From a virus (Duplodnaviria > Heunggongvirae > Uroviricota > Caudoviricetes): DNA of 64,000 nucleotides. The stretch spans positions 1 through 64,000 of the IMG/VR virus record IMGVR_UViG_3300022555_000017. One strand, written 5' to 3'. Positions 6,228 through 56,761 of this stretch are shown in pieces. The notes under the pieces were generated by a model. That model searched no databases. It was not told the origin of the DNA and was given only the letters and a program-made list of their open reading frames with translations. The first letter of the stretch is position 1. Every line of letters starts with the position of its first letter. The position numbers and the translations under genes are program-made.

Positions 6228-6418
6228 TTATAAGTATTTATTTCCCCGTTAATCTCTGCAATGTCACGCTCTAAATCTCTCTGAACAAATCTATAAGTTA
6301 CATTAGATATATCTGTAGTTGGTTTAGTTGAGTTAGCTAAAAAGTTAGATATGTTTGTATGTTCAGCAGTTGTATGTTCTAACATTTCATATAACACTTC
6401 AAGTTTAATACATTTCAT
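6221..6418 (-). CDS. Hypothetical protein (65 aa), first gene of the minus-strand block
   Basis: ORF adjacent to the divergent intergenic region 6419-6691. Confidence 0.3.
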   Translation of the reverse strand: MKCIKLEVLYEMLEHTTAEHTNISNFLANSTKPTTDISNVTYRFVQRDLERDIAEINGEINTYKC

Positions 6419-6691
6419 TTACTTATCTCCTATACTTTTTATTTCATTATAACACACACATTTCAAAATGTAAACATAAACACATAGAAGGATTTTATAT
6501 ATGTTAGGGGTGAAAGATAAGTCAATCAAACCATAGTCTAAAGTTCTGTGTCTGTAAGGTAAAATAGTAGTCATTTTATCATATAGAATAAGAGAAATAC
6601 AACAGTTTTTATTAGAAATGTATAGAATCAAAATATACAATTCATATGAAATAGTATAAATAATAATATATAATTTTAAGGAGTATATTAG

Positions 6692-9718: not shown

Positions 9719-10600
9719 ATGATAGAACTTAAATATAGTTTAAATGATATTAAGGAATATGTTGAAAGTTTTAGATATAAACTTTTATCTACTGAATATA
9801 TCGGTATTATGTCAAAATTAAAATTAAAATGCCCTGAAGGCCACATATTTGAAACAAGATATAATAATTTTAAAAACATTAATAGTAGATGCCCTGAATG
9901 TAAGGGTAATAGAAAACATACATTAGAAAAAGTTAAAGAACATATTGAAAGTTTTGATTATAAACTATTATCAACAGAATATAGAAATGCCGATACAAAA
10001 CTTGAATTAAAATGTCCTTCTGGCCATATTTTTGATATAAAGTATCGTAGCTTTCAACAAGGGCAAAGATGTATGGAATGCTCAGGTAAAAGAAAACATA
10101 CATTAGATGAAGTTAAAGAATATATTGGGGTGTATGATTATAAAGTTTTATCTACTGAATATATTAATTCATATACAAAATTAAAGTTGCAATGCCCTGA
10201 AGGTCATATATTTAATATGATGTATCGTAATTTTCAACAAGGAGTTAGATGTCCTGAATGTTGTAATAAAAAAGGATGGTCTAAACCAGAAAAGGAAATA
10301 GCAAAATATGTTAAAACAATATATTCCGACAAAGTTATAGAAAATGATAGAACACAAATTAAAAACTATTGGACAAGTGCAGGTTTAGAATTAGATATAT
10401 GGCTACCTGAAGTAAAAAAAGCAATAGAGTTTAATGGTTCTTATTGGCATTCAAATAACAAAACAAAATGGTATGATGAAATGAAGAAAAGGCAGTGTAT
10501 GAAAAATGAAATTGATTTATTAGTTATAAATGAACAAGATTGGTATGATGATAAAATGTGCCAACTAAATAAAATAAATGTTTTTATAGGAGAAATGTAA
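9719..10600 (+). CDS. Zn-ribbon-repeat (x3) plus Vsr/DUF559-like nuclease family protein; putative homing endonuclease
   Basis: Three ~45-aa repeats (Y(I/V)ESF.YKLLSTEY...L.CP.GH.F...FQQG.RC.EC) and a C-terminal PEKEIA...ENDRTQ...LELDIWLPE...AIEFNGSYWH...QDWYDDK domain. Confidence 0.7.
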   Translation: MIELKYSLNDIKEYVESFRYKLLSTEYIGIMSKLKLKCPEGHIFETRYNNFKNINSRCPECKGNRKHTLEKVKEHIESFDYKLLSTEYRNADTKLELKCPSGHIFDIKYRSFQQGQRCMECSGKRKHTLDEVKEYIGVYDYKVLSTEYINSYTKLKLQCPEGHIFNMMYRNFQQGVRCPECCNKKGWSKPEKEIAKYVKTIYSDKVIENDRTQIKNYWTSAGLELDIWLPEVKKAIEFNGSYWHSNNKTKWYDEMKKRQCMKNEIDLLVINEQDWYDDKMCQLNKINVFIGEM

Positions 10601-11769: not shown

Positions 11770-12285
11770 ATGCCTAAAAGGCTAGATTATATAGATGCTA
11801 AAGAATATATTGAGAATTTTAGTTATAAATTATTATCTACTGAATATATTAATGCTCTTTCTAAATTAAAATTACAATGCCCTGAAGGCCATACATTTAA
11901 AATGCATTATAGTCACTTTAAAAGAGGTATACGATGCCCTGAATGTGCATCAGCATTAAAATGGTCTAAGCCAGAAAAGGAAATAGCTGAATATATTAAA
12001 AAACATTATATAGGTGAAGTAATTGAAAATGATAGAACACAAATAACAAACCATAAAACTGGTAAGAACCTTGAACTTGATGTATGGCTACCAGAGTTGT
12101 CTAAAGCCATTGAATATAACGGACTTCATTGGCATAATAATGATAAAGTAAAGTGTCGTGATAATATAAAAAGAAAGCAATGTGTTGAAAAGAAAATAGA
12201 GTTACTTATAATAGAAGATAAAGATTGGTATGATGATAAAGTATGTTGTCTAAATAAAATAAATGAACTAATAGGTATTTTATAG
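11770..12285 (+). CDS. Zn-ribbon-repeat (x1) plus Vsr/DUF559-like nuclease family protein
   Basis: A single N-terminal repeat plus the conserved C-terminal nuclease domain. Confidence 0.7.
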   Translation: MPKRLDYIDAKEYIENFSYKLLSTEYINALSKLKLQCPEGHTFKMHYSHFKRGIRCPECASALKWSKPEKEIAEYIKKHYIGEVIENDRTQITNHKTGKNLELDVWLPELSKAIEYNGLHWHNNDKVKCRDNIKRKQCVEKKIELLIIEDKDWYDDKVCCLNKINELIGIL

Positions 12286-12774: not shown

Positions 12775-13668
12775 ATGTGGTATAAATATAGGATGAGTAA
12801 AAAATATACAATAGAAGAAATAAAACTATACATTGAAAGTTTTGGATATACATTATTATCTACTGAATATAATAAAGCACTTTCTAAATTAGACCTTCAA
12901 TGTCCTGAAGGTCATTTATTTAAAATGAGATATAATAATTTTAAGAATCAAAGTCAACGATGCTCTATTTGTTTTGGTACACCTAAGAAAACAATAGAAG
13001 AAGTTAGAAATTATATTGAAAGTTTTAATTATAACCTTCTTTCTACTGTGTATATAAATAATAAAGAAAAATTAGTATTGCAATGCCCTGAAGGTCATAT
13101 AATAAAAATACGATTGGATAGTTTTAGTCATGGAACTAGATGTTCAATATGTTCTGGTAATGATAAAAATTCTATTGAAAAAATTAAAAAGCATATAGAA
13201 AGTTTTGATTATAAACTATTATCAACAGAGTATATAAATAATAAATCAAAAATAAAATTACAATGTAGTAAAAATCATACATATCAAGCTTCTTATCATA
13301 GATTTCAACAAGGTGATAGATGCCCTTTATGTGCAAATAGTGAAGGTAAATCAAAACCCGAAAAAGAAATTGTTGAACATATTAAAATAAATTACTATAA
13401 AGATATAATAGAAAATGATAGAACACAAGTTAAAAACTTTTGGTCTAATCGTAATTTGGAGCTGGATATATTTTTACCTGATATATCTAAAGCAATAGAA
13501 TTTAATGGTATATATTGGCATAAAAATAATAATGTAAAATGGAAAGATGAAATGAAAAGAAAACAATGTATTCAAAAAGGTATTGAGTTATTAGTTATAC
13601 AAGAGCAAGATTGGTATAATGATAAGTTATGTTGTTTAAATAAAATAAATGAGTTAATAGGTGCTTAA
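12775..13668 (+). CDS. Zn-ribbon-repeat (x3) plus Vsr/DUF559-like nuclease family protein (probable start ATG 12793)
   Basis: Family motifs; stop overlaps the next gene start (TAATGAATGA). Confidence 0.7.
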   Translation: MWYKYRMSKKYTIEEIKLYIESFGYTLLSTEYNKALSKLDLQCPEGHLFKMRYNNFKNQSQRCSICFGTPKKTIEEVRNYIESFNYNLLSTVYINNKEKLVLQCPEGHIIKIRLDSFSHGTRCSICSGNDKNSIEKIKKHIESFDYKLLSTEYINNKSKIKLQCSKNHTYQASYHRFQQGDRCPLCANSEGKSKPEKEIVEHIKINYYKDIIENDRTQVKNFWSNRNLELDIFLPDISKAIEFNGIYWHKNNNVKWKDEMKRKQCIQKGIELLVIQEQDWYNDKLCCLNKINELIGA

Positions 13669-17847: not shown

Positions 17848-18735
17848 ATGAAAAAATTAAATTATATTGATGTTAAAAATAATATAGAAAATTTTGGATA
17901 TAAGTTATTATCTGAAAAATATATAAATGCTTTGACTAAACTAGAAATGCAATGTCCTGAAGGTCACGATTTTGAGATAAAATATAATAATTTTCAACAA
18001 GGTCAAAGATGCTCTATTTGTTTTGGTACGCCTAAGAAAATATTAAATGAAATTAAAGAGTATATAGAAAGTTTTAATTATAAATTACTTTCTACTGAAT
18101 ATAAAGATAATAGAACTAAACTAGAATTACAATGTTCTGAAGGCCATATATTTAAAATGGCATATGGTAGTTTTAAAAATCAAAATTATAGATGCCCGGA
18201 ATGTGCTGGTAATAGAAAATTTATAATAGAAGATATTAAAGAATATATTGAAAGTTTTGACTATAAACTTTTATCAACTGAATATGTAAATATATTTTCC
18301 AAGTTAAAAATACAATGTTTAAAAGGTCATATATACGCTGTAACGTATAATAATTTTAAGAATCATAATAGAAGATGCCCAGAATGTTCAAATAGTAAAA
18401 TGTTTTCTAAACCAGAAAAGGAAATTGCTGAATATGTTAAAGAGAATTATACTGGTGATGTTGTAGAAAATGACAGAACACAAATAGTAAATTATTGGAC
18501 AGGTGTTGGATTAGAACTTGATGTTTGGATGCCAGAAGCAAGAAAAGCAATAGAATTTAATGGTTCTTATTGGCATAATAATGAAAATGCTAAATGGCAT
18601 GATGAAATAAAAAAGAAACAATGCATACAAAAGAAAATAGATTTATTAGTTATACAAGAGCAGGATTGGTATAATGATAAGGTATGTTGTTTAAATAAAA
18701 TAAATAATTTAGTTTACAATACGGTTGGAATATAG
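17848..18735 (+). CDS. Zn-ribbon-repeat (x3) plus Vsr/DUF559-like nuclease family protein
   Basis: Family motifs. Confidence 0.7.
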   Translation: MKKLNYIDVKNNIENFGYKLLSEKYINALTKLEMQCPEGHDFEIKYNNFQQGQRCSICFGTPKKILNEIKEYIESFNYKLLSTEYKDNRTKLELQCSEGHIFKMAYGSFKNQNYRCPECAGNRKFIIEDIKEYIESFDYKLLSTEYVNIFSKLKIQCLKGHIYAVTYNNFKNHNRRCPECSNSKMFSKPEKEIAEYVKENYTGDVVENDRTQIVNYWTGVGLELDVWMPEARKAIEFNGSYWHNNENAKWHDEIKKKQCIQKKIDLLVIQEQDWYNDKVCCLNKINNLVYNTVGI

Positions 18736-18785
18736 TATAATAAATTAAAAGATAAAAAATAAAATTATGTAGAAGGAGATTAAAT

Positions 18786-19703
18786 ATGTGCGCTTCAAAA
18801 TGGGTAGACAAGAATTTATTTGAGAATTTTGCAACAGAAAAGGAACAAGAAAAAGATAGGAGTGCTAATAAGCGATCAGATGTCGTGTGGCAAACTCCTG
18901 AAGCCGGAACTGAAGATAAACCCAAAATCTACGAAGGTCGTTTCCTACCAGATTTGAGAGGTAAATTCACTAAATCATATTTCTATCATATGTTTCAGAT
19001 GGGAGATAAGTGGCAGTTTGTCCTTTGTCCCAAGACATATGATTTTGATAACTTCTGCCCTTTCTGTTCATTGGTAAATAAACTATACATGGGTAGTAAA
19101 GCTGACAAAGACATTGCTCCCAAATATAAAAGAAAGGCAAGGAATGTATCTAATTGGTTTGTTGTTGATGATCCGAGAGATGCTGCAATTCAAGATGAAA
19201 CAAAGAAATCTACTGGTAAAGTAAAGTTGTATGAATACCCTGATAAGGTAGATGCTAAACTTAAAACTGAAATCCTTGATAAGAAAGAAGGATTGAGAGA
19301 GGCTATCTTTGATCCGTCCTCAGAAGGTCATAACTTTATTTTGAGAATAAAGCAGACAAAGAAAGATGCAAAAGGCAAGGCATATCCAGATTATGCAGAA
19401 TCAGCATTTTCTCGTAAGTCCTCAGCATTAGGTACTGATGCTGAAATTAAGAAAATTATGGAAAGCCGTTTTTCCATTGAGGATTACATTAAGACTCTTG
19501 AAATCAAACAGGAAGATATGATTAGGATTTTGAAGTCTGAAATGTTATGGGAACTGGTCAATGATGATGCTAACAAGTATTGGTCGGTAGATAGAGAAAA
19601 AGTGCCTGAATCAGTTGAAGAATCTGATGTACCTGATTTTAATGATGACATTGGTGAAGAAGAAACTGATGCTGATATTATGGCAAAGTTAGAAACAATA
19701 TAA
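18786..19703 (+). CDS. T4 gp32-like single-stranded DNA-binding protein
   Basis: RFLPDLRGKF, GDKWQFVLCPKT...DNFCPFC align to T4 gp32 (IRFLPS..NGKWYIETCSST..DSPVQVC); acidic C-terminal tail. Confidence 0.7.
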   Translation: MCASKWVDKNLFENFATEKEQEKDRSANKRSDVVWQTPEAGTEDKPKIYEGRFLPDLRGKFTKSYFYHMFQMGDKWQFVLCPKTYDFDNFCPFCSLVNKLYMGSKADKDIAPKYKRKARNVSNWFVVDDPRDAAIQDETKKSTGKVKLYEYPDKVDAKLKTEILDKKEGLREAIFDPSSEGHNFILRIKQTKKDAKGKAYPDYAESAFSRKSSALGTDAEIKKIMESRFSIEDYIKTLEIKQEDMIRILKSEMLWELVNDDANKYWSVDREKVPESVEESDVPDFNDDIGEEETDADIMAKLETI

Positions 19704-19730
19704 AAAAAGTAGAAAAGGAGAAAGAAAGTA

Positions 19731-20664
19731 ATGGCAAGTGGTAAAGTAAAGTGGTTTAATGACAGTAAGGGTTAATAAAGAATAAGATAAATAATCAAAG
19801 CATGAAATGGCAAAATAAATATAATATTGATATTGAAGAAGTACATACTAAAAACATGGAAGGATATAGTTTAACAGACTTATCTTCCATGTTTAATGTA
19901 CCTAAAACAACATTGAATAGATATTTAAAGAAAGCAGGATATAGAATACTAATGAATAGGAAGATTTTACCATATTCATATTATATCACAGTAACTGAAA
20001 AGGAAATTGATTACAATTATAAGAGAAATAATACTGGACGGTGGAAAAGAAATTTGATATTTCATTACGGCCATAAATGTATTATTTGTGAATATGATAA
20101 AATTGTTGAAGCACATCATATTAAACCTCTTTCAGATGGTGGTAAAACAAGTGTTGAAAATGGTATTTTATTATGCCCGAATTGTCATGCAGAAGTTCAT
20201 GCTGGATTATTAAACTTAACCGAGGCCCTTATAAAATTGGGTGAATTGCTGGAACATTCTTTAGAGAACAATCAGCAGCCAAGTCATGAAAGTAGGTATA
20301 TACCGAGAGTCATGGAAGGTTCAACGACTAATTCCCGAGCGAAAGCAGTAATGGAAACAAGAGCGCCCAAATCTCGTAGTAATAGAATAGGAAAAGATAT
20401 GTATATTTTAAATAATCCTTCCTTACGAGATATGATATAGTCTGATCTGCATATAAAAAATAAGTTGCAGAGTTATGGGATAAAGAGCCCATAAGATAAC
20501 AAATGTTCGGCTTCATTGAGAAGGCAGATGGTGGTGATGTGTTTGTTCATTTCAGTTCAATTCAAGGTGATGGATTCAAGTCACTTCAAGAAGGTGCGAG
20601 TGTAAGTTTTGATATTGAACAGGGTGCTAAAGGCCCATCAGCAGTTAATGTAAGAACTATCTAA
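19731..20664 (+). CDS. cspA: Cold-shock protein CspA-like, interrupted: exon 1 19731-19772 ([14 protein letters not shown]), exon 2 20506-20664 ([16 protein letters not shown]...); spliced product 66 aa
   Basis: Both halves are canonical CSD sequence (KWFN..KGFGFI, VFVHFS). aaaaggag RBS before 19731. Exon 1 ends in T and the intervening sequence ends in G, as in group I introns. Confidence 0.6.
19773..20505 (+). mobile_element. Putative group I intron (~733 nt) within cspA carrying an HNH homing endonuclease ORF
   Basis: In-frame stop immediately after exon 1, U at the 5' splice site, G at the 3' end, internal HNH ORF. Intron core structure (P3-P9) not verified. Confidence 0.5.
19802..20440 (+). 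CDS. HNH endonuclease (intron-encoded)
   Basis: CIICEY...[34 protein letters not shown] motif. Confidence 0.75.
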   Translation: MKWQNKYNIDIEEVHTKNMEGYSLTDLSSMFNVPKTTLNRYLKKAGYRILMNRKILPYSYYITVTEKEIDYNYKRNNTGRWKRNLIFHYGHKCIICEYDKIVEAHHIKPLSDGGKTSVENGILLCPNCHAEVHAGLLNLTEALIKLGELLEHSLENNQQPSHESRYIPRVMEGSTTNSRAKAVMETRAPKSRSNRIGKDMYILNNPSLRDMI

Positions 20665-20679
20665 GAAAGGAAGAAAGAT

Positions 20680-20898
20680 ATGAAAAAGATTTTTGAAAGA
20701 TTCCGTAACTGGTTAAACAAGTATATTAATCTTAAATTCATAACTATTACAGCTAAAATTATTATCGTTGGTTTATTATTGAGTACGGGATATTCATTAC
20801 TAAACACCGATAGTAATTTAGGTGTAGGAGTAGGAATAAGTATATTGGTTTTGGTATTGGCATGGATCGTTGCTAAAATATCTAACATCGTATTTTAA
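20680..20898 (+). CDS. Small membrane protein (2 TM helices)
   Basis: Hydrophobic segments; RBS gaaaggaag. Confidence 0.45.
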   Translation: MKKIFERFRNWLNKYINLKFITITAKIIIVGLLLSTGYSLLNTDSNLGVGVGISILVLVLAWIVAKISNIVF

Positions 20899-20913
20899 GA
20901 AAAGGAGAATAAA

Positions 20914-21777
20914 ATGTTTAAGAAACTGTTAGGTGGTATTGTTGGTGGTTTGTTACTTTTTAGTTTAGTTGGCTGTGGTTGTCAAAAAATTGAGCCAGGT
21001 CATGTTGGTATTCAAGTTAATAATCTTGGTTCAGATCGTGGTGTTCAAAGTTATACAATGAAAACAGGTCTTGTATTTTATATGCCTATTATGTCTACTA
21101 TTTTTGAATACCCAACATATATGCAAACTGCTAGTTGGACACACGACAAAAATGAAGGTAGTGAAAATAATGAAGAAATTACTTTCAATACTAAAGAAGG
21201 GTTGGTTGTAAGTGGTGATGTTTCTTTGGGTTATCAACTTATTGCATCAAAGGTTCCTAATTTTTATGTAACATTCAGGTCTGATGATCTTAATGGTTTT
21301 ACACATGGATTTTTGAGAAATATTGCAAGAGATGCCTTCAATGAAGTTGGTGCTAAATATTCTGTAGAAGATGTATATGGTGCCAAAAAAGAAGATTTCC
21401 TAAAAGAAGTAAAGGCATATGTAAATAGTCAAGTAGTTAAATTCGGTGTACAAATTGAACAGTTTGGTTTCATTGGGGCATTGAGGATTCCTGCTGGTGT
21501 AAAAGGTGCATTAGATGCTAAGATTCAGGCAACACAGGATGCTATCAGAGCAGAGAATCAGGTAAGACAGGCAAAAGCTGAAGCTGAAAAGAGAATTGCT
21601 GAAGCTGTAGGTATTTCAAAGGCAAATGAATTGATTACAACTTCCATTACAGATAAGTTAATTGAATGGAGAAGGTTGGAAGTTACTCAGCAAGCTGTCG
21701 CAAAATGGAATGGTGCAAGACCAATGGTTGAAGGTAATGGTTCTGGTCTATTATTAAATATTAATCCTAACAAGTAA
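20914..21777 (+). CDS. SPFH/band-7 (prohibitin/stomatin-like) domain lipoprotein
   Basis: Signal peptide with lipobox LVGC; SPFH-like core followed by a coiled-coil AENQVRQAKAEAEKRIAEA tail. Confidence 0.55.
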   Translation: MFKKLLGGIVGGLLLFSLVGCGCQKIEPGHVGIQVNNLGSDRGVQSYTMKTGLVFYMPIMSTIFEYPTYMQTASWTHDKNEGSENNEEITFNTKEGLVVSGDVSLGYQLIASKVPNFYVTFRSDDLNGFTHGFLRNIARDAFNEVGAKYSVEDVYGAKKEDFLKEVKAYVNSQVVKFGVQIEQFGFIGALRIPAGVKGALDAKIQATQDAIRAENQVRQAKAEAEKRIAEAVGISKANELITTSITDKLIEWRRLEVTQQAVAKWNGARPMVEGNGSGLLLNINPNK

Positions 21778-21804
21778 TTTAACGAAATATTATAGACAGA
21801 CTAA

Positions 21805-21832
21805 AGGGATACAAATCGTGTCCCTTTTTTCT
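21805..21832 (+). terminator. Rho-independent terminator
   Basis: agggatac-aaatc-gtgtccc stem-loop followed by tttttt. Confidence 0.6.
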
Positions 21833-22017
21833 TGCGCCTTATAGTGACAAAATGTTAAACTCATTGAATGGGTCATTAAATCTACATTACACAAATGAAC
21901 TTTATTTGATGTAAATATATTATAGTTCCTTATTATATATGATAAAACTTTTATTTTTGATTTTTAGTCTTTTGGTATGATAATCGTATATACAATGGTA
22001 AGAGATTAAAAAACTAA

Positions 22018-22926: not shown

Positions 22927-23805
22927 ATGAATAAAAAATATACTATAGAAAATATTAAAAAAATAATGTTAGATTTTAGTTATGAACTATTATCTAATGA
23001 ATATAAAAATAATACATCAAAACTTAAAATAAAATGTGATAACAACCATATTTTTATTACTGATATGAAGCATTTTAAAAGAGGTCATAAATGCCCTGAA
23101 TGTTCTAAAAATAAAAAACACACTATTGAAAATATTAAAGAATATATAGAAAGTCTTAACTATAAACTTTTATCATCAGAATACATTAATACTCTTACAA
23201 AATTAACATTACAATGCCCTGAAGGCCATATTTATTTATCCACATATAGTAATTTTCAACAAGGAAAAAGATGTCCTGTTTGTTTTGGAACACCTAAGAA
23301 AACATTAGAAAATGTTAGTAAATATATTGAAATGTTTGGATATAAAGTTCTATCAACTGAATATATAACTAATAATACAAAATTAAAATTATCATGCCCC
23401 AATAATCATACTTTTAAGATGAGTTATAGTAGTTTTCATACAGGACAAAGATGCCCATTATGCTCTTATATAAATAGTGGTTCAATACCTGAAAAGGAAA
23501 TAGCTGAGTATACTAAAGCAATATATTCTGGTGAAGTTATAGAAAATGATAGAACACAAGTTAAAAACTATTTTACAAACTATCCATTGGAACTAGACAT
23601 ATATATACCAAAATCATCTAAAGCAATTGAATTTAACGGAAAATATTGGCATAATAATGACTATATAAAGTGGAAAGATGAAATGAAACGAAAACAATGT
23701 ATGAAAAGAGGAATTGATTTATTAGTGATAGATGAAAAGGAATGGTGTAAAAATAAGGATCAGATTTTTAAAAATATTAAGATATTTTTAAAGGAGATTA
23801 GATAA
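22927..23805 (+). CDS. Zn-ribbon-repeat (x3) plus Vsr/DUF559-like nuclease family protein
   Basis: Family motifs. Confidence 0.7.
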   Translation: MNKKYTIENIKKIMLDFSYELLSNEYKNNTSKLKIKCDNNHIFITDMKHFKRGHKCPECSKNKKHTIENIKEYIESLNYKLLSSEYINTLTKLTLQCPEGHIYLSTYSNFQQGKRCPVCFGTPKKTLENVSKYIEMFGYKVLSTEYITNNTKLKLSCPNNHTFKMSYSSFHTGQRCPLCSYINSGSIPEKEIAEYTKAIYSGEVIENDRTQVKNYFTNYPLELDIYIPKSSKAIEFNGKYWHNNDYIKWKDEMKRKQCMKRGIDLLVIDEKEWCKNKDQIFKNIKIFLKEIR

Positions 23806-28588: not shown

Positions 28589-28816
28589 ATGTCTAAAAAA
28601 TTAGAATGTAATGATGTTTGGCTACCAGAACTAAATAAAGCAATTGAGTTTAACGGCAGATATTGGCATAATAATGACATTTCAAGGTGGTACGATGAAA
28701 TGAAGGGAAGGCAATGTATTAAAAAAGGTATTGACTTATTAGTTATACAAGAACAAGATTGGTATAATGATAAACCACACTGCCTTAACAAAATAAATAA
28801 ACTTATAGGTGCATAA
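28589..28816 (+). pseudogene. Truncated remnant (75 aa) of the Zn-ribbon/Vsr-like nuclease family: C-terminal domain only
   Basis: Retains ...WLPELNKAIEFNGRYWHNND...IDLLVIQEQDWYNDK but lacks the Zn-ribbon repeats and the PEKEIA/ENDRTQ N-terminal part of the nuclease domain. Confidence 0.55.
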
Positions 28817-29663: not shown

Positions 29664-30542
29664 ATGATTGGTAAAAAATTAAATTATATAGAAGTTAAAC
29701 AATATATTGAAAGTTTTGATTATAAACTTTTATCAACAAATTATATAAATGCTTTAACAAAATTAGAATTACAATGTCCGAAAGATCATATATATTTTGG
29801 TGTATATGGTAATTTTCAACAAGGTATTAGATGCCCGGAATGCTCAGGTCTAAAAAGGAAAACTTTAAGAGGCGTAAAAGAATATATTGAAAGTTTTGGG
29901 TATGAATTATTATCCACTGAATATAAAAATAGTAAAGAAAAATTAGAATTACAATGTCCTAAAAAACATATATTTAAAATGAGTTATGTTTGTTTTCAAA
30001 GAGGGCAAAGATGCCCCGAATGCGATAAATCTAAAAAACTTACATTAAATAAAGTTAAACAATATATAGAAAATTTTGAATATAAACTTTTATCAACAGA
30101 GTATGTAAATAGTAAAACTAAATTAGAACTACAATGCCCTGAAAGTCATATTTATAATGTAATATACAATTCATTTCAGCAAGGTCAAAGATGCCCTAGT
30201 TGTGCTTCAGTTAAAGGATGGTCTAAACCTGAAAAGGAAATTGCTGAATATATTAAACAAAACTATATTGGTGAAGTTATGGAAAATGATAGAACACAAG
30301 TAAAGAACTATTGGTCGGGTAAAAATTTAGAATTAGACATATTTTTACCTGAATTAAATAAAGCTGTTGAATATAATGGTGAGTACTGGCATAATAATGA
30401 TAAATCAAGATGGTATGATGAAATGAAAAAGAAGCAATGTAAACAAAAAAATATAAATTTATTGGTTATACAAGAACAAGATTGGTATGATAATAAACCA
30501 TACTGTCTTAACAAAATAAATAACTTCATTGTAAATTTATGA
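29664..30542 (+). CDS. Zn-ribbon-repeat (x3) plus Vsr/DUF559-like nuclease family protein
   Basis: Family motifs; directly followed by another member. Confidence 0.7.
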   Translation: MIGKKLNYIEVKQYIESFDYKLLSTNYINALTKLELQCPKDHIYFGVYGNFQQGIRCPECSGLKRKTLRGVKEYIESFGYELLSTEYKNSKEKLELQCPKKHIFKMSYVCFQRGQRCPECDKSKKLTLNKVKQYIENFEYKLLSTEYVNSKTKLELQCPESHIYNVIYNSFQQGQRCPSCASVKGWSKPEKEIAEYIKQNYIGEVMENDRTQVKNYWSGKNLELDIFLPELNKAVEYNGEYWHNNDKSRWYDEMKKKQCKQKNINLLVIQEQDWYDNKPYCLNKINNFIVNL

Positions 30543-30597: not shown

Positions 30598-31479
30598 ATG
30601 CAAAAATTATCATATAATGAAATTAGAAAATATATAGAAAGTTTTAATTATAAATGGCTATCTGGTGAATATAAAGATAATAAATCCAAATTAAATATTC
30701 AATGCCCAGAAGAGCATATTTACAAGGCATCATATAATAGTTTTCATAGAGGACGCAGATGCCCTAAATGTTTTGGAACTCATAAAAAATCTAATGAAGA
30801 AGTCAAAAGTTATATAGAAAGTTTCAACTATAAACTTCTATCTACTGAATACAAAAATAGTAAAGAAAAATTAGAACTACAATGCCCAAAAGGTCATATT
30901 TATTTTGCAAGTTATGATGATTTTCAACAAGAACATAGATGCCCTGAATGTGCAAATAAAATGAAGGGAGATAGTCAACGATTAGAAATTAATAATGTGA
31001 AAGAATATATAGAGGGTTTTGGATATAAACTTTTATCAACAGAATATAAAAATGTTTTATCTAATTTGAGATTGGAATGTTTAAATGGTCATAAATTTTT
31101 AATGAGATATAATAGTTTTCAACAGGGACAACGATGCCCTAAATGTTCGTATATTGACAAAAGTTCAAAACCTGAAAAAGAAATTGCTAAATATGTTAAA
31201 ACTATTTATTCTGGTAAAATGATTGAAAACGACAGGACACAAGTAAAAAACTATTGGTCTAGTCGTAATTTAGAACTTGATATATTTTTACCTGAATTAT
31301 CTAAAGCAATTGAATTTAATGGTATATATTGGCATTCAAATGATAAAACGATGTGGTGTGATGAAATGAAGAAAAAACAATGCATACAAAAGGGTATTGA
31401 TTTATTTGTAATAGATGAAAAACATTGGCGTGATGATAAGGTATGTTGTTTAAGTAATATAACGAAATTTATAATGTAG
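30598..31479 (+). CDS. Zn-ribbon-repeat (x3) plus Vsr/DUF559-like nuclease family protein (ORF opens at 30562)
   Basis: Family motifs; tandem with 29664-30542. Confidence 0.7.
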   Translation: MQKLSYNEIRKYIESFNYKWLSGEYKDNKSKLNIQCPEEHIYKASYNSFHRGRRCPKCFGTHKKSNEEVKSYIESFNYKLLSTEYKNSKEKLELQCPKGHIYFASYDDFQQEHRCPECANKMKGDSQRLEINNVKEYIEGFGYKLLSTEYKNVLSNLRLECLNGHKFLMRYNSFQQGQRCPKCSYIDKSSKPEKEIAKYVKTIYSGKMIENDRTQVKNYWSSRNLELDIFLPELSKAIEFNGIYWHSNDKTMWCDEMKKKQCIQKGIDLFVIDEKHWRDDKVCCLSNITKFIM

Positions 31480-31495
31480 AAAGGAAATGTGTGTA

Positions 31496-32365
31496 ATGAC
31501 AAAATGCAATCTATTTGATATGAACAATCTGGCGGTTCGCTGTTTCTTTAGCAAGGACATAGAGGCAGATTCTCCCCACCCAAATATCCAACTATGGAAG
31601 TATTTCGTAATAGATTCAGTATACAACTCACTATTTAAGGATAAAACTACTGAAATTGTGCTTGCTGTTGATGATAGAAGGTCATGGAGAAAGAATGTAT
31701 TTCCAAGATATAAAGAAGGGAGAAAGGGTAAAAGAGAAGTAAGTAAAGTAGATTGGAATATTTTTTATACAGAATATGATAGTCTATTAGAAGAGATTAG
31801 AAATAACCTACCATTCAAAGTGATCCATGTAACTGAAGCAGAAGCCGATGATATTATTGGTGTTATTGCTCTATATGGAACAAAAGATAAGTATACTGTT
31901 GTGAGTAATGATGAAGATTACTTACAACTTTCATCTAGCAAAGTAAAAATCTATAATCCAATGAAAATGACATATGTTGAATGCCAAGACACTGAGAAAT
32001 TTATCATAGAAAAGAGCCTATTGGGCCAAAAGAAAGATGATATATTTAATATTAAAACTCCTGTTGATTGGCCTATAGACAAGAGAAAGCCAGGCTTTGG
32101 TGATGCAGCACTAGCTAAAGTTATGGAATACGGTTGGGAAAAGTGGTTAAAAGATAACAAACTTGAAGATAGATATGAACTGAATAGAACTCTTATTGAT
32201 TTTAAGAGAATACCAGTATATCTAAGAACAGGTATCTTAAATTGTTATGATAGTTATGTTTTACCTGATCCCAGTAATTGTTATGGATTTTTCAAGTCTA
32301 ATAATTTTAGAGGATACCTTGAAAATTTTCATAATGTAGAAAATAATCTTTTAAAAATGTATTAG
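31496..32365 (+). CDS. rnh: T4-type RNase H / FEN 5'-3' exonuclease
   Basis: AVDDRRSWRKNVFPRYKEGRKGKRE...VTEAEADDIIGVIA...VSNDEDYLQL aligns to T4 RNase H (CIDNAKSGYWRRDF..YKKNRGKARE..KYEADDHIAVL..SSDGDFTQL). Confidence 0.8.
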   Translation: MTKCNLFDMNNLAVRCFFSKDIEADSPHPNIQLWKYFVIDSVYNSLFKDKTTEIVLAVDDRRSWRKNVFPRYKEGRKGKREVSKVDWNIFYTEYDSLLEEIRNNLPFKVIHVTEAEADDIIGVIALYGTKDKYTVVSNDEDYLQLSSSKVKIYNPMKMTYVECQDTEKFIIEKSLLGQKKDDIFNIKTPVDWPIDKRKPGFGDAALAKVMEYGWEKWLKDNKLEDRYELNRTLIDFKRIPVYLRTGILNCYDSYVLPDPSNCYGFFKSNNFRGYLENFHNVENNLLKMY

Positions 32366-33182: not shown

Positions 33183-33878
33183 ATGCCTGCAAAATTAATT
33201 TATACAAATATTAAAAACTATATTGAAGATTTTAATTATAAACTTTTATCAACTGAATATGTAAATAATAAAGAAATATTAAAATTAAAATGCCCTCAGA
33301 ACCATTTATTTAATATGTCTTTTCATACTTTTAAAGATAATGGAAATAGATGCTTTGAATGTAGTGGGAAAAAAAGAAATATATTAAATGTGGTTAAAAA
33401 CTATATTGAAGATTTTAATTATAAACTTTTATCTACCAGTTATATAAAAGCTTTAGATAAATTGAAATTACAATGCCCTAAAGGCCATATATTTGAAATG
33501 CGATATAATGATTTTCAACAAGGCCATAGATGTCCAGAGTGTTCATTGGTATTAGGATGGTCTAAAGCTGAAAAGGAAATTGTTGAATATGTTAAAAGTA
33601 TATATTCTGGTAATATAATAGAAAATGATAGAACGGTATGTAAAAACTATTGGTCTGGAAAAAATCTCGAACTTGATATATATTTACCAGAAATACAAAA
33701 AGCTATTGAATACAATGGGCGACATTGGCATTCATTTGAACAAAAACAATGGTATGATGAAATGAAGAAAAAGCAATGTATTAAAAAAGGTATTAATTTA
33801 TTAGTCATACAAGAGCAAGATTGGTTAGATAATAAGATGTATCAATTAAATAAAATAAATAAACTAGTAGGAGTATAG
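33183..33878 (+). CDS. Zn-ribbon-repeat (x2) plus Vsr/DUF559-like nuclease family protein, inserted exactly between nrdG and nrdD
   Basis: Starts at the nucleotide after the nrdG stop and ends 5 nt before the nrdD start. Confidence 0.7.
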   Translation: MPAKLIYTNIKNYIEDFNYKLLSTEYVNNKEILKLKCPQNHLFNMSFHTFKDNGNRCFECSGKKRNILNVVKNYIEDFNYKLLSTSYIKALDKLKLQCPKGHIFEMRYNDFQQGHRCPECSLVLGWSKAEKEIVEYVKSIYSGNIIENDRTVCKNYWSGKNLELDIYLPEIQKAIEYNGRHWHSFEQKQWYDEMKKKQCIKKGINLLVIQEQDWLDNKMYQLNKINKLVGV

Positions 33879-33883
33879 AACAA

Positions 33884-35818
33884 ATGTTAAATCTTTCAAT
33901 GGATTATGACGAAGGGTTTTCAAACCTATATAACAAGTGGAACAGTAGTGAAAGAGGAAAAAAGTTTCTTGAGTTTATTGGTATATCAAGGGATAAGTTA
34001 GATATAGTATCAATGAGTAAGTTGTATTTCAGTAAGAGTGAAGAAGATAGGACAATAGATGTAAATGCTAATGTTGGAAGGATAACAAGTCCTAACAATT
34101 ATCAAGCAGAAGTATTCAAGGGTGTAACAAAGTTAAATGGTCTTTTTCTTTTGTGGCAACATATGTCAAAAAAGAGAGGGGAAGAAACAGCTAGCAGAGT
34201 AGTATCAGGTATTATATCAGGCGATTATTATTTCCATGATTTAACATCTTCAGGTGTTTTAGTTCCCTATTGTTTTGCTTGGGCATCTAACAATGTTTTA
34301 AGTGAAGGTCGTAAGTATGGACAGTTACAATCTAAGTCACCGAAGAGAAGTGATTCATTCATTGCCGTCTGTATTGAATCTATTTTTGATATGGCACAAG
34401 AACAAATGGGGGCATTAGCTATACCAGATTTTATTGTTAATCTAGCATATTTTTATAAGAAAGAAGGTATTGATCCAGAATCAGAAGAAGGTAAGTATAA
34501 GATAGAGAACGATTTCCAAAGAATAATCCATTCATTAAATCAACAGTATAGAACAAGTAATCAATCAGCATTTACAAACTTTTCATTATTTGATAGAGAA
34601 ATCTTTAGAACAACATTTGCTGATTATTCATATCCAGATGGTACAAGTTGTCTAGACCTAACAGAATATATACAATCAGTTCAAAAGGTTTATATTGAGT
34701 TTGTTGCTAAGAAAGACCCATCAACAAAACTGCCATATAGATTTCCCGTTAATACACTAAACATCTATACAACAGAAGATCGTGAAATAGTTGATCAAAA
34801 GTTCTTTGACGTTGTGTGTAAGAATAATACAGAAGGACTATTTAATATATTCATTAGTAGAGGAAAAGCTAAGTTAGCATCCTGCTGCAGATTATTAAGT
34901 GATCCTATTAAGTTGAGAGAGTTTGCGAGATTTGATTCGTTCGCTAATGCAGGTCTATCACTTGGTAGTGCTAGAGTAGTAACGGTTAATTTTGCTAGAA
35001 TAGGTAAGTTAGCTAAGAATGATAAAGATAAATATTTCTTTCTGTTAAGTGAAAGATTAAATGATGTTAGAATGTTACTGAAATGTCAGAGGCATTTACT
35101 TAAACAGAAGATTGATGAAGGATTTCTAAAGTTCTTTAAGATGGATTGGATGAATATGAAGATGTTCTTTTCAACATTCGGCATGACAGGACTCAATGAA
35201 AGTATGTTGTTCATGGGTATTGACATAAAGACAGATGAAGGTATTGAGTTTGCTAAGGAACTATTCTTCTTCATTGAAAAGAAACTTGATGAGTTCAGTA
35301 GAGAAGATAGTATTGCTTACAACCTTGAGCAAGTTCCAGCAGAAGGTGCGGCATCCATGTTGGCAAGAATGGATAAGTTGTATTTCAATGATGAAGATTA
35401 TCCTTATGAGATATATGCAAATCAGTTTATACCTCTATGGGAGAAGTCAGACATTGTTGAACGAGCTACATTAGATGGCAAGTTAGGTAGTTATATGAGT
35501 GGTGGTAGTATTTGTCACTTGAATATTGGTACTAAAGTAACTGAGAAACAAATGGGTAAGCTAATCAATCTAGCAATCAAGTCAGGTCTTGAGCATTTTG
35601 CGTTGAATCCTAACTATTTGAAATGTGAAAATGATTGTATAACTATTGGAAGTAATAATGTCGAAACTTGTCCTAAATGTGGTGGTGATATTGTTGAAGC
35701 CTATAGTCGTGTCGTTGGCTACTTTACACCTGTAACACAATGGGATAAAACCAGAAGGGCAAAGGATTATGCTAATAGAACATTTAATGATATTGATATA
35801 ATAGAAGGTTTGTGTTAA
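33884..35818 (+). CDS. nrdD: Anaerobic ribonucleoside-triphosphate reductase NrdD (class III RNR), uninterrupted
   Basis: C-terminal CPKCGG...RVVGYFTPV zinc ribbon and glycyl-radical motif; size and overall pattern match T4/E. coli NrdD. Confidence 0.85.
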   Translation: MLNLSMDYDEGFSNLYNKWNSSERGKKFLEFIGISRDKLDIVSMSKLYFSKSEEDRTIDVNANVGRITSPNNYQAEVFKGVTKLNGLFLLWQHMSKKRGEETASRVVSGIISGDYYFHDLTSSGVLVPYCFAWASNNVLSEGRKYGQLQSKSPKRSDSFIAVCIESIFDMAQEQMGALAIPDFIVNLAYFYKKEGIDPESEEGKYKIENDFQRIIHSLNQQYRTSNQSAFTNFSLFDREIFRTTFADYSYPDGTSCLDLTEYIQSVQKVYIEFVAKKDPSTKLPYRFPVNTLNIYTTEDREIVDQKFFDVVCKNNTEGLFNIFISRGKAKLASCCRLLSDPIKLREFARFDSFANAGLSLGSARVVTVNFARIGKLAKNDKDKYFFLLSERLNDVRMLLKCQRHLLKQKIDEGFLKFFKMDWMNMKMFFSTFGMTGLNESMLFMGIDIKTDEGIEFAKELFFFIEKKLDEFSREDSIAYNLEQVPAEGAASMLARMDKLYFNDEDYPYEIYANQFIPLWEKSDIVERATLDGKLGSYMSGGSICHLNIGTKVTEKQMGKLINLAIKSGLEHFALNPNYLKCENDCITIGSNNVETCPKCGGDIVEAYSRVVGYFTPVTQWDKTRRAKDYANRTFNDIDIIEGLC

Positions 35819-51125: not shown

Positions 51126-52037
51126 ATGTTAAATAAAAAATATAATTTAAATACAGTTAGAGAGTATATAGAAAGTTTTAGTTATAAACTTTTATCAACT
51201 GAATATAAAGATAACAAATCTAAATTATTATTACAATGTCCTAAAAATCATATAATAAAATTATCACTTCATAATTTTAAAGAAAATAGATGTTCTATAT
51301 GTTCAAATAAAAAACCTGATTTATATGAAATTAGTAACTATGTTGAAAGTTTCAATTATAAAGTTATATCTACAGAATATACAAATAAAAAAAATAAATT
51401 AAAAATACAATGTTCTGAAGGGCATATTTATGAAAGTAGTTATAACAGTTTTAAAAATGGTATTAGATGCCACTTATGTAAAGATAAAAAACTAAAAAAG
51501 GAAAAATTACACACTAATATTTTATATAATAAAAAGAAAACTTTAAAAGAAGTTAAAGAATATATTGAAAGTTTTGGTTATAATCTTTTATTTACAGAAT
51601 ATATAAATGCTAGGTCTAAATTAAAGTTAAAATGCCCTTCTGAGCATATATATAATGTAAAATGGCCAGATTTTAAAAACAATCATAGATGTCCTGAATG
51701 TGCATCGGTTAAGGGATGGTCTAAGCCAGAAAAAGAAATAGCTGAATATGTTAAAACAATATATTTAAATAATATTATAGAAAATGATAGAACACAAATA
51801 AAGAACTATTGGACAAATAAAAATTTAGAACTGGATATTTGGCTACCAGAAATAAGAAAAGCAATAGAGTTTAATGGTTCTTATTGGCATAATAATGATA
51901 AGTCAAGATGGTATGATGAAATAAAAAAGAAACAATGCATACAAAAAGGTATTGATTTATTAGTTATAAATGAACAAGATTGGTATGATGATAAAAAACT
52001 TCAATTGAATAATATTGGAGGATTTATCAATGTTTGA
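51126..52037 (+). CDS. Zn-ribbon-repeat (x3) plus Vsr/DUF559-like nuclease family protein
   Basis: Family motifs; located at the 3' end of the glycan cluster. Confidence 0.7.
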   Translation: MLNKKYNLNTVREYIESFSYKLLSTEYKDNKSKLLLQCPKNHIIKLSLHNFKENRCSICSNKKPDLYEISNYVESFNYKVISTEYTNKKNKLKIQCSEGHIYESSYNSFKNGIRCHLCKDKKLKKEKLHTNILYNKKKTLKEVKEYIESFGYNLLFTEYINARSKLKLKCPSEHIYNVKWPDFKNNHRCPECASVKGWSKPEKEIAEYVKTIYLNNIIENDRTQIKNYWTNKNLELDIWLPEIRKAIEFNGSYWHNNDKSRWYDEIKKKQCIQKGIDLLVINEQDWYDDKKLQLNNIGGFINV

Positions 52038-55264: not shown

Positions 55265-56761
55265 TTATATTCTGGCCCATTTAACAATCAAATCGTTGAC
55301 TTCTGTAAACCAACCATTCTTTTCCTCATGCTCATATTCATAAATAAAATCTATAACATGATCCGAAAAGCCATTTATTAATGTCCAGTTTTTATCATAT
55401 GTTAGACCTGAATCATATGTTGCAATGTTCATAATATAACCCTTACTATTATTAGAAGGTAATGCTCTACCATCTGTTGATTGCTCATCTGTTATAACAA
55501 TCACTCTATCATACTCTTCTTTACTCTTTAAATCGTTCAAAGAAGTTCTTAAAGCTGTTCCCATGTTAGGCTGATTATTAATAATAGAATCAGCTAATTC
55601 AAAACCATGATAGTTATTTCCTACAAGGGCTAATCTATCAGAAAAGGTATATACAACACATTCATCGCACACTTCTCTTAAAAGAATAGCAAGTGCTGTT
55701 GCGGTATCAATCCTTTTTGTTTCAGACTTCCTTGCAGTAGCCCAAGTCATTGAACCAGATACATCAACAAGTAATGCAGTTTTACCAGATAACTTGTTAA
55801 ATGTTCTAACACACTTTAACATCATATCTTCAAGTTCTTTCTTAATATCTACATCTGAAATATTCTTATATGCAGTATAGAATCTGAAAGGGAAAAGTTT
55901 TTCAACATTAGCCTTATGTAAAGCATCTATAATCGTATACTTATCAAGACCAGCTTCTATCATACCTCTTATATTTTTGATCAAAGCCATAGCACCTAAC
56001 TTATTATTCTTAATCAAATCCTCAAAAACATCTTTCTTATTTTCACCGGAAGATAAACGCACTTCCCAAGTATCAGGGATTTCTAATTTAGAATATTCAC
56101 CATAAAATGCCTTGATTGGAAATCCTGCTTTTGTTACTGTTGGAAAGAAATCTTTATTTACCAACTGAGCAAACATCTTTCCTTTTGTCATATTTTCAGG
56201 TTTAGCGTGGCACAAAAATGCCGCATCCCTCAACTGAACAGAGCCAGGGCCACTATCATTCTTATTCCATTTAGCTATCTGATACTCATTGAACTTATTG
56301 AAAGCCTTTGAAATACCTTTCTTTACCTGAGCAGACAAAGAAGAATCTTTATCACTACCAGACCAATATAGTTTTAAGAACTCAATTATTTCATCAGGTC
56401 TTTGAATAATCTGATTTAAAGTATTACTTAAAATAGAAGGGGTATATGTCTTAGTATTACGAGCAAGCTCACGAATTAAAAGCAATGGTATTTTTCTTAA
56501 ATGGAACTTATCTCTAGCTTCTATCGCAAGAGAGGCAACCATATAAGGATCGCATTGTTTAACCAATTCTTTTATTCTATTTGTACAAGATGCGCCTGAT
56601 TCATAAAATGAATTTTCATTTAATAGGCAAGATAATACTGAACGTCTTAACTGAGCTTCTGAACTTAAATTTTCAAACATAACATATTCTCCTTGAGTAA
56701 AGATTTGAGGAACAAATTGCATTGAGTGTTTTTTCATTTTGTAGTTGAAGTAACTCAACAC
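55265..56761 (-). CDS. von Willebrand factor A (vWA) domain protein, possibly CobT-like
   Basis: MIDAS motif LLVDVSGSMTW with downstream T and D residues; large N-terminal extension. Confidence 0.5.
   Translation of the reverse strand: MLSYFNYKMKKHSMQFVPQIFTQGEYVMFENLSSEAQLRRSVLSCLLNENSFYESGASCTNRIKELVKQCDPYMVASLAIEARDKFHLRKIPLLLIRELARNTKTYTPSILSNTLNQIIQRPDEIIEFLKLYWSGSDKDSSLSAQVKKGISKAFNKFNEYQIAKWNKNDSGPGSVQLRDAAFLCHAKPENMTKGKMFAQLVNKDFFPTVTKAGFPIKAFYGEYSKLEIPDTWEVRLSSGENKKDVFEDLIKNNKLGAMALIKNIRGMIEAGLDKYTIIDALHKANVEKLFPFRFYTAYKNISDVDIKKELEDMMLKCVRTFNKLSGKTALLVDVSGSMTWATARKSETKRIDTATALAILLREVCDECVVYTFSDRLALVGNNYHGFELADSIINNQPNMGTALRTSLNDLKSKEEYDRVIVITDEQSTDGRALPSNNSKGYIMNIATYDSGLTYDKNWTLINGFSDHVIDFIYEYEHEEKNGWFTEVNDLIVKWARI

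Follow-up and report, generated by a model that had tools for sequence, protein, structure and literature searches.

HNH homing endonucleases are known from group I introns in phages: I-HmuI and I-HmuII are encoded within introns of the DNA polymerase genes of the Bacillus phages SPO1 and SP82, and I-PfoP3I is encoded within an intron of the DNA polymerase gene of Pf-WMP3 (PMC3428280; PMC3984707). As hosts of such introns, the sections of PMC3984707 cited here name phage genes for DNA polymerases, for ribonucleotide reductases, and for terminases, and the bacterial genes for flagellin, recA, and nrdE. In collaborative homing, a free-standing endonuclease and an intron without an open reading frame (ORF) have the same target, as described for F-CphI with the psbA intron of cyanophage S-PM2 and for mobE with the nrdB intron of T4 (PMC6083498, PMC2790892, PMC3984707). 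Here we describe a 64,000-nucleotide (nt) stretch of DNA from a tailed phage (positions 1 to 64,000 of IMG/VR record IMGVR_UViG_3300022555_000017; we will call the whole stretch the window), in which a cspA-type cold-shock gene (csp) is interrupted by a 733-nt insert. Judging from sequence comparisons, this insert is very probably a mobile group I self-splicing intron that encodes an HNH endonuclease.

The csp intron resembles those of I-HmuI, I-HmuII, and I-PfoP3I in several ways. It is a (predicted) self-splicing group I intron in a conserved part of a phage coding gene, it has an in-frame stop straight after the 5' exon, and it carries an HNH gene. An ORF that partly overlaps the ribozyme core also has precedent, as this layout is described in general terms in the legend to Fig. 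2b of PMC3984707; what is notable here is the extent of the overlap and its conservation. The host gene differs: csp is not among the hosts named in those sections of PMC3984707, and a search of the full-text literature, whose coverage is incomplete, turned up no csp gene described as having an intron. By analogy with SPO1/SP82, Twort, and Pf-WMP3, the mechanism is an ordinary one, that of a mobile group I intron with an HNH homing endonuclease. What is new is csp as the host gene, an ORF in the P1 loop that is fused in frame to the whole core, and the picture of the family that emerges from related loci. A small RNA chaperone gene thus joins the short list of phage genes known as hosts of group I introns.

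The features of the locus are:

19731-19772, plus strand: csp exon 1, 14 codons, with the ATG at 19731 and GGT as the last codon
19765-19772, plus strand: 5' strand of P1, which is the last 8 nt of exon 1, GUAAGGGU
19773-20505, plus strand: group I intron, 733 nt, starting with UAA UAA and ending with the terminal G (omega G) at 20505
19802-20440, plus strand: HNH endonuclease ORF, 212 amino acids, with its stop codon UAG (20438-20440) inside the S element and the 3' strand of P7
20078-20203, plus strand: sequence coding for the HNH catalytic motif (residues 93-134), of the zinc-finger type and the McrA/IscB kind
20220-20232, plus strand: internal guide sequence, 5'-CCGAG followed by GCCCUUAU-3', which pairs with both exon ends
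20237-20505, plus strand: ribozyme core, from the Rfam match and a covariation-tested structure
20506-20664, plus strand: csp exon 2, 52 codons plus the stop codon (20662-20664)

Joined together, the two exons encode a 66-amino-acid protein whose residues 3-65 match the cold-shock domain (Pfam CSD, PF00313) with E = 1e-29, covering positions 2-65 of the 66 in the profile. Exon 1 is followed directly by in-frame TAA TAA (19773-19778). The insertion interrupts the sequence that codes for the RNP1 motif (K-G/F-G-F-I, with the slash at the insertion), and the motif KGFGFI is present only once the exons are joined. When we searched the window with tblastn, we recovered both csp pieces and no further piece. 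Furthermore, csp is split at the identical codon boundary in at least 15 diverged sequences from other contigs. Because these two pieces are the only ones in the window and because the split recurs, a chance resemblance can be dismissed. When proteins were searched with the spliced Csp, its best homologues were also 66 amino acids long (76-85% identity). The preliminary description of this locus had proposed that exons at 19731-19772 and 20506-20664 make a 66-amino-acid CspA, and that the 733 nt between them start after a U (T19772), end in a G (G20505), and contain an HNH ORF at 19802-20440. All of these coordinates are correct. It also held that a csp carried by a phage is notable in itself, which we do not support: a phage-borne csp is not new, as tblastn finds csp-like genes in 80 phage records, several of which bear a cold-shock protein annotation.

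The intron closes with the bases AUG (20503-20505), which share the frame of exon 2; of 17 homologues, 13 have AUG, UUG, or GUG at the 3' end of the intron. Because of this AUG, gene callers report a 53-amino-acid fragment of the cold-shock domain (MFGFIEK...). Where a locus is annotated as a 53-amino-acid CSD fragment plus a "McrA-like" HNH protein, an intact csp gene has been missed, in phage and in metagenome annotation alike.

A search of the insert against Rfam's group I models was among the tests proposed in the preliminary description, and it was positive: when the whole window was scanned at Rfam's gathering thresholds, RF00028 matched at 20163-20464 with 60.8 bits (the gathering score is 50). 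This was the only intron that Rfam identified in the window. A local scan of a 351-nt stretch with RF00028 gave 20187-20464 (55.8 bits, E = 1e-13). The position of the match places the core in the 3' 40% of the insert, where it shares sequence with the last third of the HNH ORF. One can read off the P, Q, R, and S elements from the sequence (AAUUGCUGGAA, AAUCAGCAGCC, GUUCAACGACUA, and GAUAUAGUCU). The elements of the core, all on the plus strand, are:

20237-20243 with 20364-20370: P3
20247-20252 with 20272-20277: P4
20257-20260 with 20265-20268: P5
20279-20319: P6, P6a, and P6b
20320-20330: R element and 5' strand of P7
20331-20357: extra stem P7.1, with an inner GNRA hairpin
20371-20378 with 20424-20431: P8
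20434-20443: S element and 3' strand of P7
20446-20451 with 20466-20471: P9
20473-20479 with 20488-20494: P9.1

When the core and a mini-intron were folded by minimum free energy, P3 to P9 were recovered, but not P1 or P7. Such a result is to be expected with a pseudoknotted RNA, so we drew up the structure manually and used covariation to test it (see below). Introns of subgroup IA2, which are typical of phages, have extra helices P7.1 and P7.2 between P7 and the 3' strand of P3, as well as P2. The csp intron has one extra stem at that place, the one with the inner GNRA hairpin, and the P2 of IA2 is absent.

The predicted splice sites are specified by pairings of the internal guide sequence with both exons. 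In P1, the last 8 nt of exon 1 (19765-19772) pair with 20225-20232 to form 8 base pairs, including a U19772.G20225 wobble at the 5' splice site. In P10, 20220-20224 pair with the first five nt of exon 2, UUCGG (20506-20510). The guide, which is directly upstream of AAAA and P3, is thus complementary to the ligated exon junction at 13 of 13 positions; an equal match anywhere in the shuffled intron arose in just 2 of 3,000 shuffles. These pairings define exactly the boundaries that were first noted, with 19773 and 20505 as the ends of the intron.

We also noticed that GGUUAA at 19770-19775 straddles the 5' splice site and has its complement, UUAACC, at 20214-20219, just 5' of the guide. This pairing would compete with P1, and RNAfold prefers it in the mini-construct. 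UUAACC also codes for a conserved peptide, so the complementarity may be coincidental.

We compared 15 distinct homologous introns, which are diverged, come from metagenomes, and share a common insertion point after the GGT within the K-G codons. We scored an alignment of mini-introns (383 columns) with a structure of 14 helices: P1, P10, P3 to P6b, a bulged P7, P7.1, P8, P9, and P9.1. Across the 75 pairs in these helices, including the P3/P7 pseudoknot, 94.0% of cells are paired, versus 33-39% if the partners are slid by 1-3 columns. There are changes on both sides in 43 of the 75 pairs. The covariation score is 0.495, versus about 0.09 for the control, and none of 500 shuffles reached the observed values. 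Double changes occur in four pairs of P3, and all five pairs of P7.1 co-vary. In P7, a switch between A-U and G-C beside the bulge co-varies perfectly (six sequences with one and nine with the other). Compensatory changes are seen in two pairs of P1 and in two pairs of P10, in which 90.7% of cells are paired. The wobble G of P1 and the terminal G are present in all 15 introns. The guide follows the substitutions in the exons:

exon 2 starting UUCGG: guide CCGAG
exon 2 starting UUUGG: guide CCAAG
exon 2 starting UAUGG: guide UCAUG
exon 2 starting UACGG: guide UCGUA
exon 1 ending GUAAGGGU: guide GCCCUUAU
exon 1 ending AAAAGGGU: guide GCCCUUUU
exon 1 ending CUAAAGGU: guide GCCUUUAU

These comparisons are strong evidence that the RNA fold, including the helices that bind the exons, is under selection, which in turn would imply that the intron splices.

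The preliminary description offered a fallback: a csp gene destroyed by the insertion of a free-standing HNH gene. There would then be no splicing and no functional Csp. The HNH ORF does fill most of the insert, gene callers annotate a mere 53-amino-acid fragment of the domain, and the window is full of free-standing endonuclease genes. However, the ribozyme core is intact and scores above Rfam's gathering score, and the guide can pair with the ends of both exons, which it also tracks by covariation in the 15 homologues. Furthermore, the exons are intact, in frame, and conserved at every locus, which is not expected for a dead gene. We consider a destroyed csp to be extremely improbable, and the fallback is unsupported.

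The ORF within the predicted intron matches the HNH family PF01844 (E = 6.7e-11, residues 93-134) and also many PHROG families annotated as "HNH endonuclease". Its profile matches in the PDB are HNH domains, namely those of McrA, IscB, and a group II intron maturase; its HNH motif is of that type, unlike those of I-HmuI, I-HmuII, and I-PfoP3I. Seven residues (C96, H105, N120, C125, N127, H129, and H133) are invariant in 26 homologues. Residues 1-139 include a weak match to a helix-turn-helix as well as the HNH domain, and this part of the ORF fills the P1 loop, which runs from the 5' splice site to the guide.

We considered that the ORF might lie in a peripheral loop apart from the ribozyme, and we rejected this, as its last 73 codons (residues 140-212) are the sequence of the ribozyme core. 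From residue 140 on, the frame crosses P10/P1, P3, P4 to P6, P7, P7.1, and P8. The introns of I-HmuI, I-HmuII, and I-PfoP3I differ in both respects: the csp intron has its ORF in the P1 loop and lacks P2, and its frame spans the entire core (57-84 codons) and is open in all 15 homologues. The other two frames over the core have 3-11 stop codons each in these introns. Differences in the lengths of the variable loops among homologous introns are multiples of three. The conserved peptides of the tail are conserved RNA elements in translation: NQQPS comes from the Q element and EGSxT from the R element. In the HNH part of the ORF, divergence at codon positions 1, 2, and 3 is 0.37, 0.27, and 0.57, which is protein-like, while in the tail it is flat (0.30, 0.30, and 0.33). 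As the tail is open yet shows flat divergence across codon positions, it evolves as RNA while stop codons are kept out. These roughly 70 codons, read as protein yet evolving as RNA, are a clean natural example of such a sequence.

A tail with no protein-type codon signature could also be expected if the intron were a decaying relic, with an inactive ribozyme or endonuclease, that persists by descent. Similarly, no clear ribosome-binding site is seen for the HNH ORF, and a related locus (L037) has an HNH gene that is visibly decayed. But the csp introns retain every element of the catalytic core, together with the wobble pair and the terminal G, and these evolve with compensatory changes. The HNH domain has the clear protein-coding pattern given above, and its catalytic residues remain invariant in the 26 homologues. 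We therefore regard decay as very improbable and return to our proposal of an active mobile intron.

We propose that the intron works as follows. In the transcript, the guide (20220-20232) would pair with the end of exon 1 to form P1 and with the start of exon 2 to form P10. A free guanosine, bound in P7, would attack after U19772, and the released exon 1 would then attack after the terminal G20505. The exons would be joined as ...AAGGGU/UUCGGC... (in DNA, ...GACAGUAAGGGU/UUCGGCUUCAUU...), which would restore the 66-amino-acid cold-shock protein. A ribosome on the unspliced RNA would halt at the UAA UAA right after exon 1, so the ribozyme would be free to fold. As the ORF overlaps P3 to P8 and has its end in P7, making the endonuclease from an RNA molecule and folding that molecule into the ribozyme should be mutually exclusive: a translating ribosome would have to unfold the ribozyme, and synthesis of the endonuclease and splicing would compete on each transcript. 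The endonuclease most likely nicks or cuts intron-less csp genes near the insertion site in co-infecting relatives, and repair templated by the intron-bearing copy would spread the intron (homing). We infer the splicing, the cleavage activity and its site, the homing, and the interplay between translation and splicing. Csp proteins are RNA chaperones, a class of proteins that is employed in folding assays of group I introns. More speculatively, then, the spliced Csp might help the intron of its own gene at low temperature, or the endonuclease might act on csp genes of the host.

A second sample of the same phage (L011) bears on homing. Over 6.6 kb, it has three scattered differences from the window, plus a patch at +6 to +32 nt of exon 2 (20511-20537 in the window versus 3710-3739 in L011) that contains six substitutions and the insertion of one codon. 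Between the two samples, there is no difference in the intron, in exon 1, or in the five bases of P10. The patch lies beside the 3' splice site and looks like a short tract of gene conversion; it is suggestive of co-conversion during homing or of repair of a nearby cut.

Several observations weigh against our proposal. First, an Rfam scan by E-value of 2.5 kb around the site found no group I match, so that detection depends on the filters; this miss is due to speed filters and not to the absence of a core. Second, P2 is absent, and P1 has to close across a loop of 447 nt. Third, there is no obvious Shine-Dalgarno sequence in the window for the start codon of the HNH ORF. (A scan of 18700-21900 for promoters and terminators gave results at chance level.) Fourth, our searches yielded no intron-less csp allele, either of this phage or of one closely related to it: the closest Csp without an intron has 85% identity, and the three top intron-less matches that we looked up (P0048, P0052, and P0053) are in bacterial chromosomal contexts. 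These matches do not indicate the host, as the conservation of Csp is too high for that. Only distant relatives came out of scans of viral contigs with gp32 and the HNH protein as queries, and we obtained no syntenic intron-less allele because the loci with a 44%-identical gp32 have no csp nearby. Finally, the only population evidence for homing is the exon-2 patch, which is indirect and suggestive.

A protein search with the HNH ORF found 47 homologues, and many loci were obtained by looking up gene contexts and by a metagenome scan. At every locus of the family with enough flanking sequence, csp exon 2 is downstream of the HNH ORF. The 14-codon exon 1 precedes the HNH ORF wherever the upstream flank is long enough. 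The HNH ORF is intron-borne in the window and in at least 15 other loci, and it is directly upstream of csp in four loci. Otherwise, the gene neighborhoods are unrelated: gp32 and Band_7 in the window; PrkA, DUF444, and SpoVR in L015; a CCA-adding enzyme and an RNA ligase in L017; and DNA polymerase A and a nucleotide kinase in L020. The HNH family is strictly associated with csp genes. Across 185,579 species genomes, the HNH profile matched only at the level of the motif, and no member of the family was among the matches.

The alignment of the HNH proteins shows two forms: a long form of about 190-222 amino acids, which is intron-borne, and a short form of 162-177 amino acids without the RNA-derived tail. 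The short form is a separate gene whose stop codon is at or overlaps the start of csp, or is just before it. The four loci with a free-standing HNH gene beside csp are:

L021, 2501-3480
L036, 2142-3131
L107, 510-1480
L109, 227-1240

The free-standing HNH gene is accompanied by an ORF-less intron (82.7 bits by Rfam in L021 and 69.4 bits in L036) at a second insertion site, site B, which is 17 nt upstream of the window-type site (site A). At L037 (1001-1710), a decayed short HNH gene, with no start codon and a disrupted HNH motif, adjoins an uninterrupted csp (MEEMKVYTGEIVWFNDKRGYGFCKPDDG...). In the arrangement of their genes, the four loci with a short HNH gene immediately upstream of csp resemble the known cases of collaborative homing. 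Unlike in collaborative homing, the HNH gene of the window is inside the intron, and a single endonuclease family is found in both states at a single target gene.

This family also raises the question of whether homing is what the endonuclease is for. The intron might splice as we propose, and the HNH protein might not be a homing enzyme, or not only one: it might act in competition between phages (marker exclusion) or attack the csp of the host. In the latter variant, the RNP1-coding sequence of the host's csp would resemble the ligated junction, and the phage's copy would be protected by its intron. Consistent with this, the target region codes for the part of Csp that is most conserved across all bacteria, bacterial chromosomal Csps share 76-85% identity with that of the phage, our searches gave no intron-less phage allele, and the family also exists as free-standing genes next to csp. 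However, two observations are as ordinary homing predicts: the HNH gene is strictly linked to csp introns, and a conversion-like patch flanks the intron. We think that a role other than homing is unlikely, and below we continue to treat the protein as a putative homing endonuclease.

Several closely spaced group I introns in one gene are found in orf142 of Staphylococcus phage Twort. Similarly, at L034 (157-1197) and L035 (1-1031), there are two group I introns in one csp gene, but unlike in orf142, these are just 17 nt apart, with a micro-exon between them (TTAATAATAAAAAGGGT and TCAATAACAAAAAGGGT, respectively). The csp of the window has no such pair. The layout of L034 is:

157-181: exon 1
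then an ORF-less site-B intron of 198 nt
380-396: micro-exon
then the site-A intron with the HNH gene
then exon 2

The guide of the site-B intron in L034 matches its own junction at 10 of 10 positions. We also considered whether the site-A and site-B introns have a common recent origin. This is unsupported: their mean identity is 55%, and the site-A introns are no closer to them than to an unrelated intron from Flavobacterium phages (61%). The site-B intron of L109 is an exception, as it has a P7.1 element like those of the site-A introns. Given the low identity, we treat these as separate lineages of introns that share a short, highly conserved target. The interruption of csp is thus family-wide and not a one-off, with at least 15 diverged introns at one site and other lineages 17 nt away.

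It is possible, and we suggest it only tentatively, that this HNH family on one 30-nt stretch of csp is a natural series of the merging of an endonuclease with an intron. The states that we see are a free-standing HNH gene beside an ORF-less site-B intron; a decayed HNH gene beside an uninterrupted csp; an HNH gene in a site-A intron, fused in frame to the ribozyme core; genes with two introns and a micro-exon of 17 nt between them; and an intron flanked by a conversion patch that looks fresh. With free-standing and intron-borne versions of one endonuclease at one target, the origin of a composite mobile intron becomes testable. Should both enzymes, the free-standing and the intron-borne one, have a common cleavage sequence in csp, we would have here the fullest natural record of the pathway from collaborative homing to a composite mobile intron.

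The only match at the DNA level in our phage collection is to introns of Flavobacterium psychrophilum phages (FpV/FPSV, genus Fipvunavirus), with 74% identity over P3 to P7. The Flavobacterium phage intron scores 59.3 bits with RF00028, and over the core its identity with the csp introns is about 61%. Unlike the csp intron, it is in another, unannotated host gene, has no ORF, and has a P2 hairpin. In FPSV-F12 (MK764441.1, approximately 31474-31707; positions 2471-2704 of L010), it is an unannotated group I intron between two "hypothetical protein" coding sequences, and a small coding sequence on the minus strand is annotated over it. The same element is in 22 records of Flavobacterium psychrophilum phages.

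As for the genome that carries the csp intron, the window is AT-rich (29% G+C) and is a piece of a large phage genome that is distantly T4-like. Our phage collection contains no close relative of it. Its genes include one for an SbcC-like ATPase. Within these 64 kb, there are about 10 paralogous copies or fragments (48-72% identical) of a free-standing endonuclease-like gene of about 290 codons. They match PHROG 559, 681, and 3339 ("HNH/homing endonuclease") and have repeated zinc-ribbon or CapR-like modules. This load of selfish nuclease genes is unusually dense, and the genome is clearly permissive to them. Other features of the window are:

18786-19703: gp32, about 30% identical to cyanophage proteins
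33884-35818: NrdD
9746-10588, 11794-12273, 12799-13659, 17848-18732, and 22933-23757, plus strand: endonuclease-like paralogues
28613-28807, 29673-30536, 30598-31473, 33189-33869, and 51135-52028, plus strand: endonuclease-like paralogues
55265-56761, minus strand: gene for a protein with Ro60/TROVE and vWA domains (Pfam TROVE, E = 1.1e-22)

Rfam gave no Y-RNA-like match in the window to accompany the TROVE protein. In another phage with a csp intron (L015), we noticed a second HNH gene just upstream (2069-2698). In the same phage, the SpoVR-like gene has matches to Pfam's LAGLIDADG_3 in mid-gene (6240-6633), which may be an intein or an inserted endonuclease.

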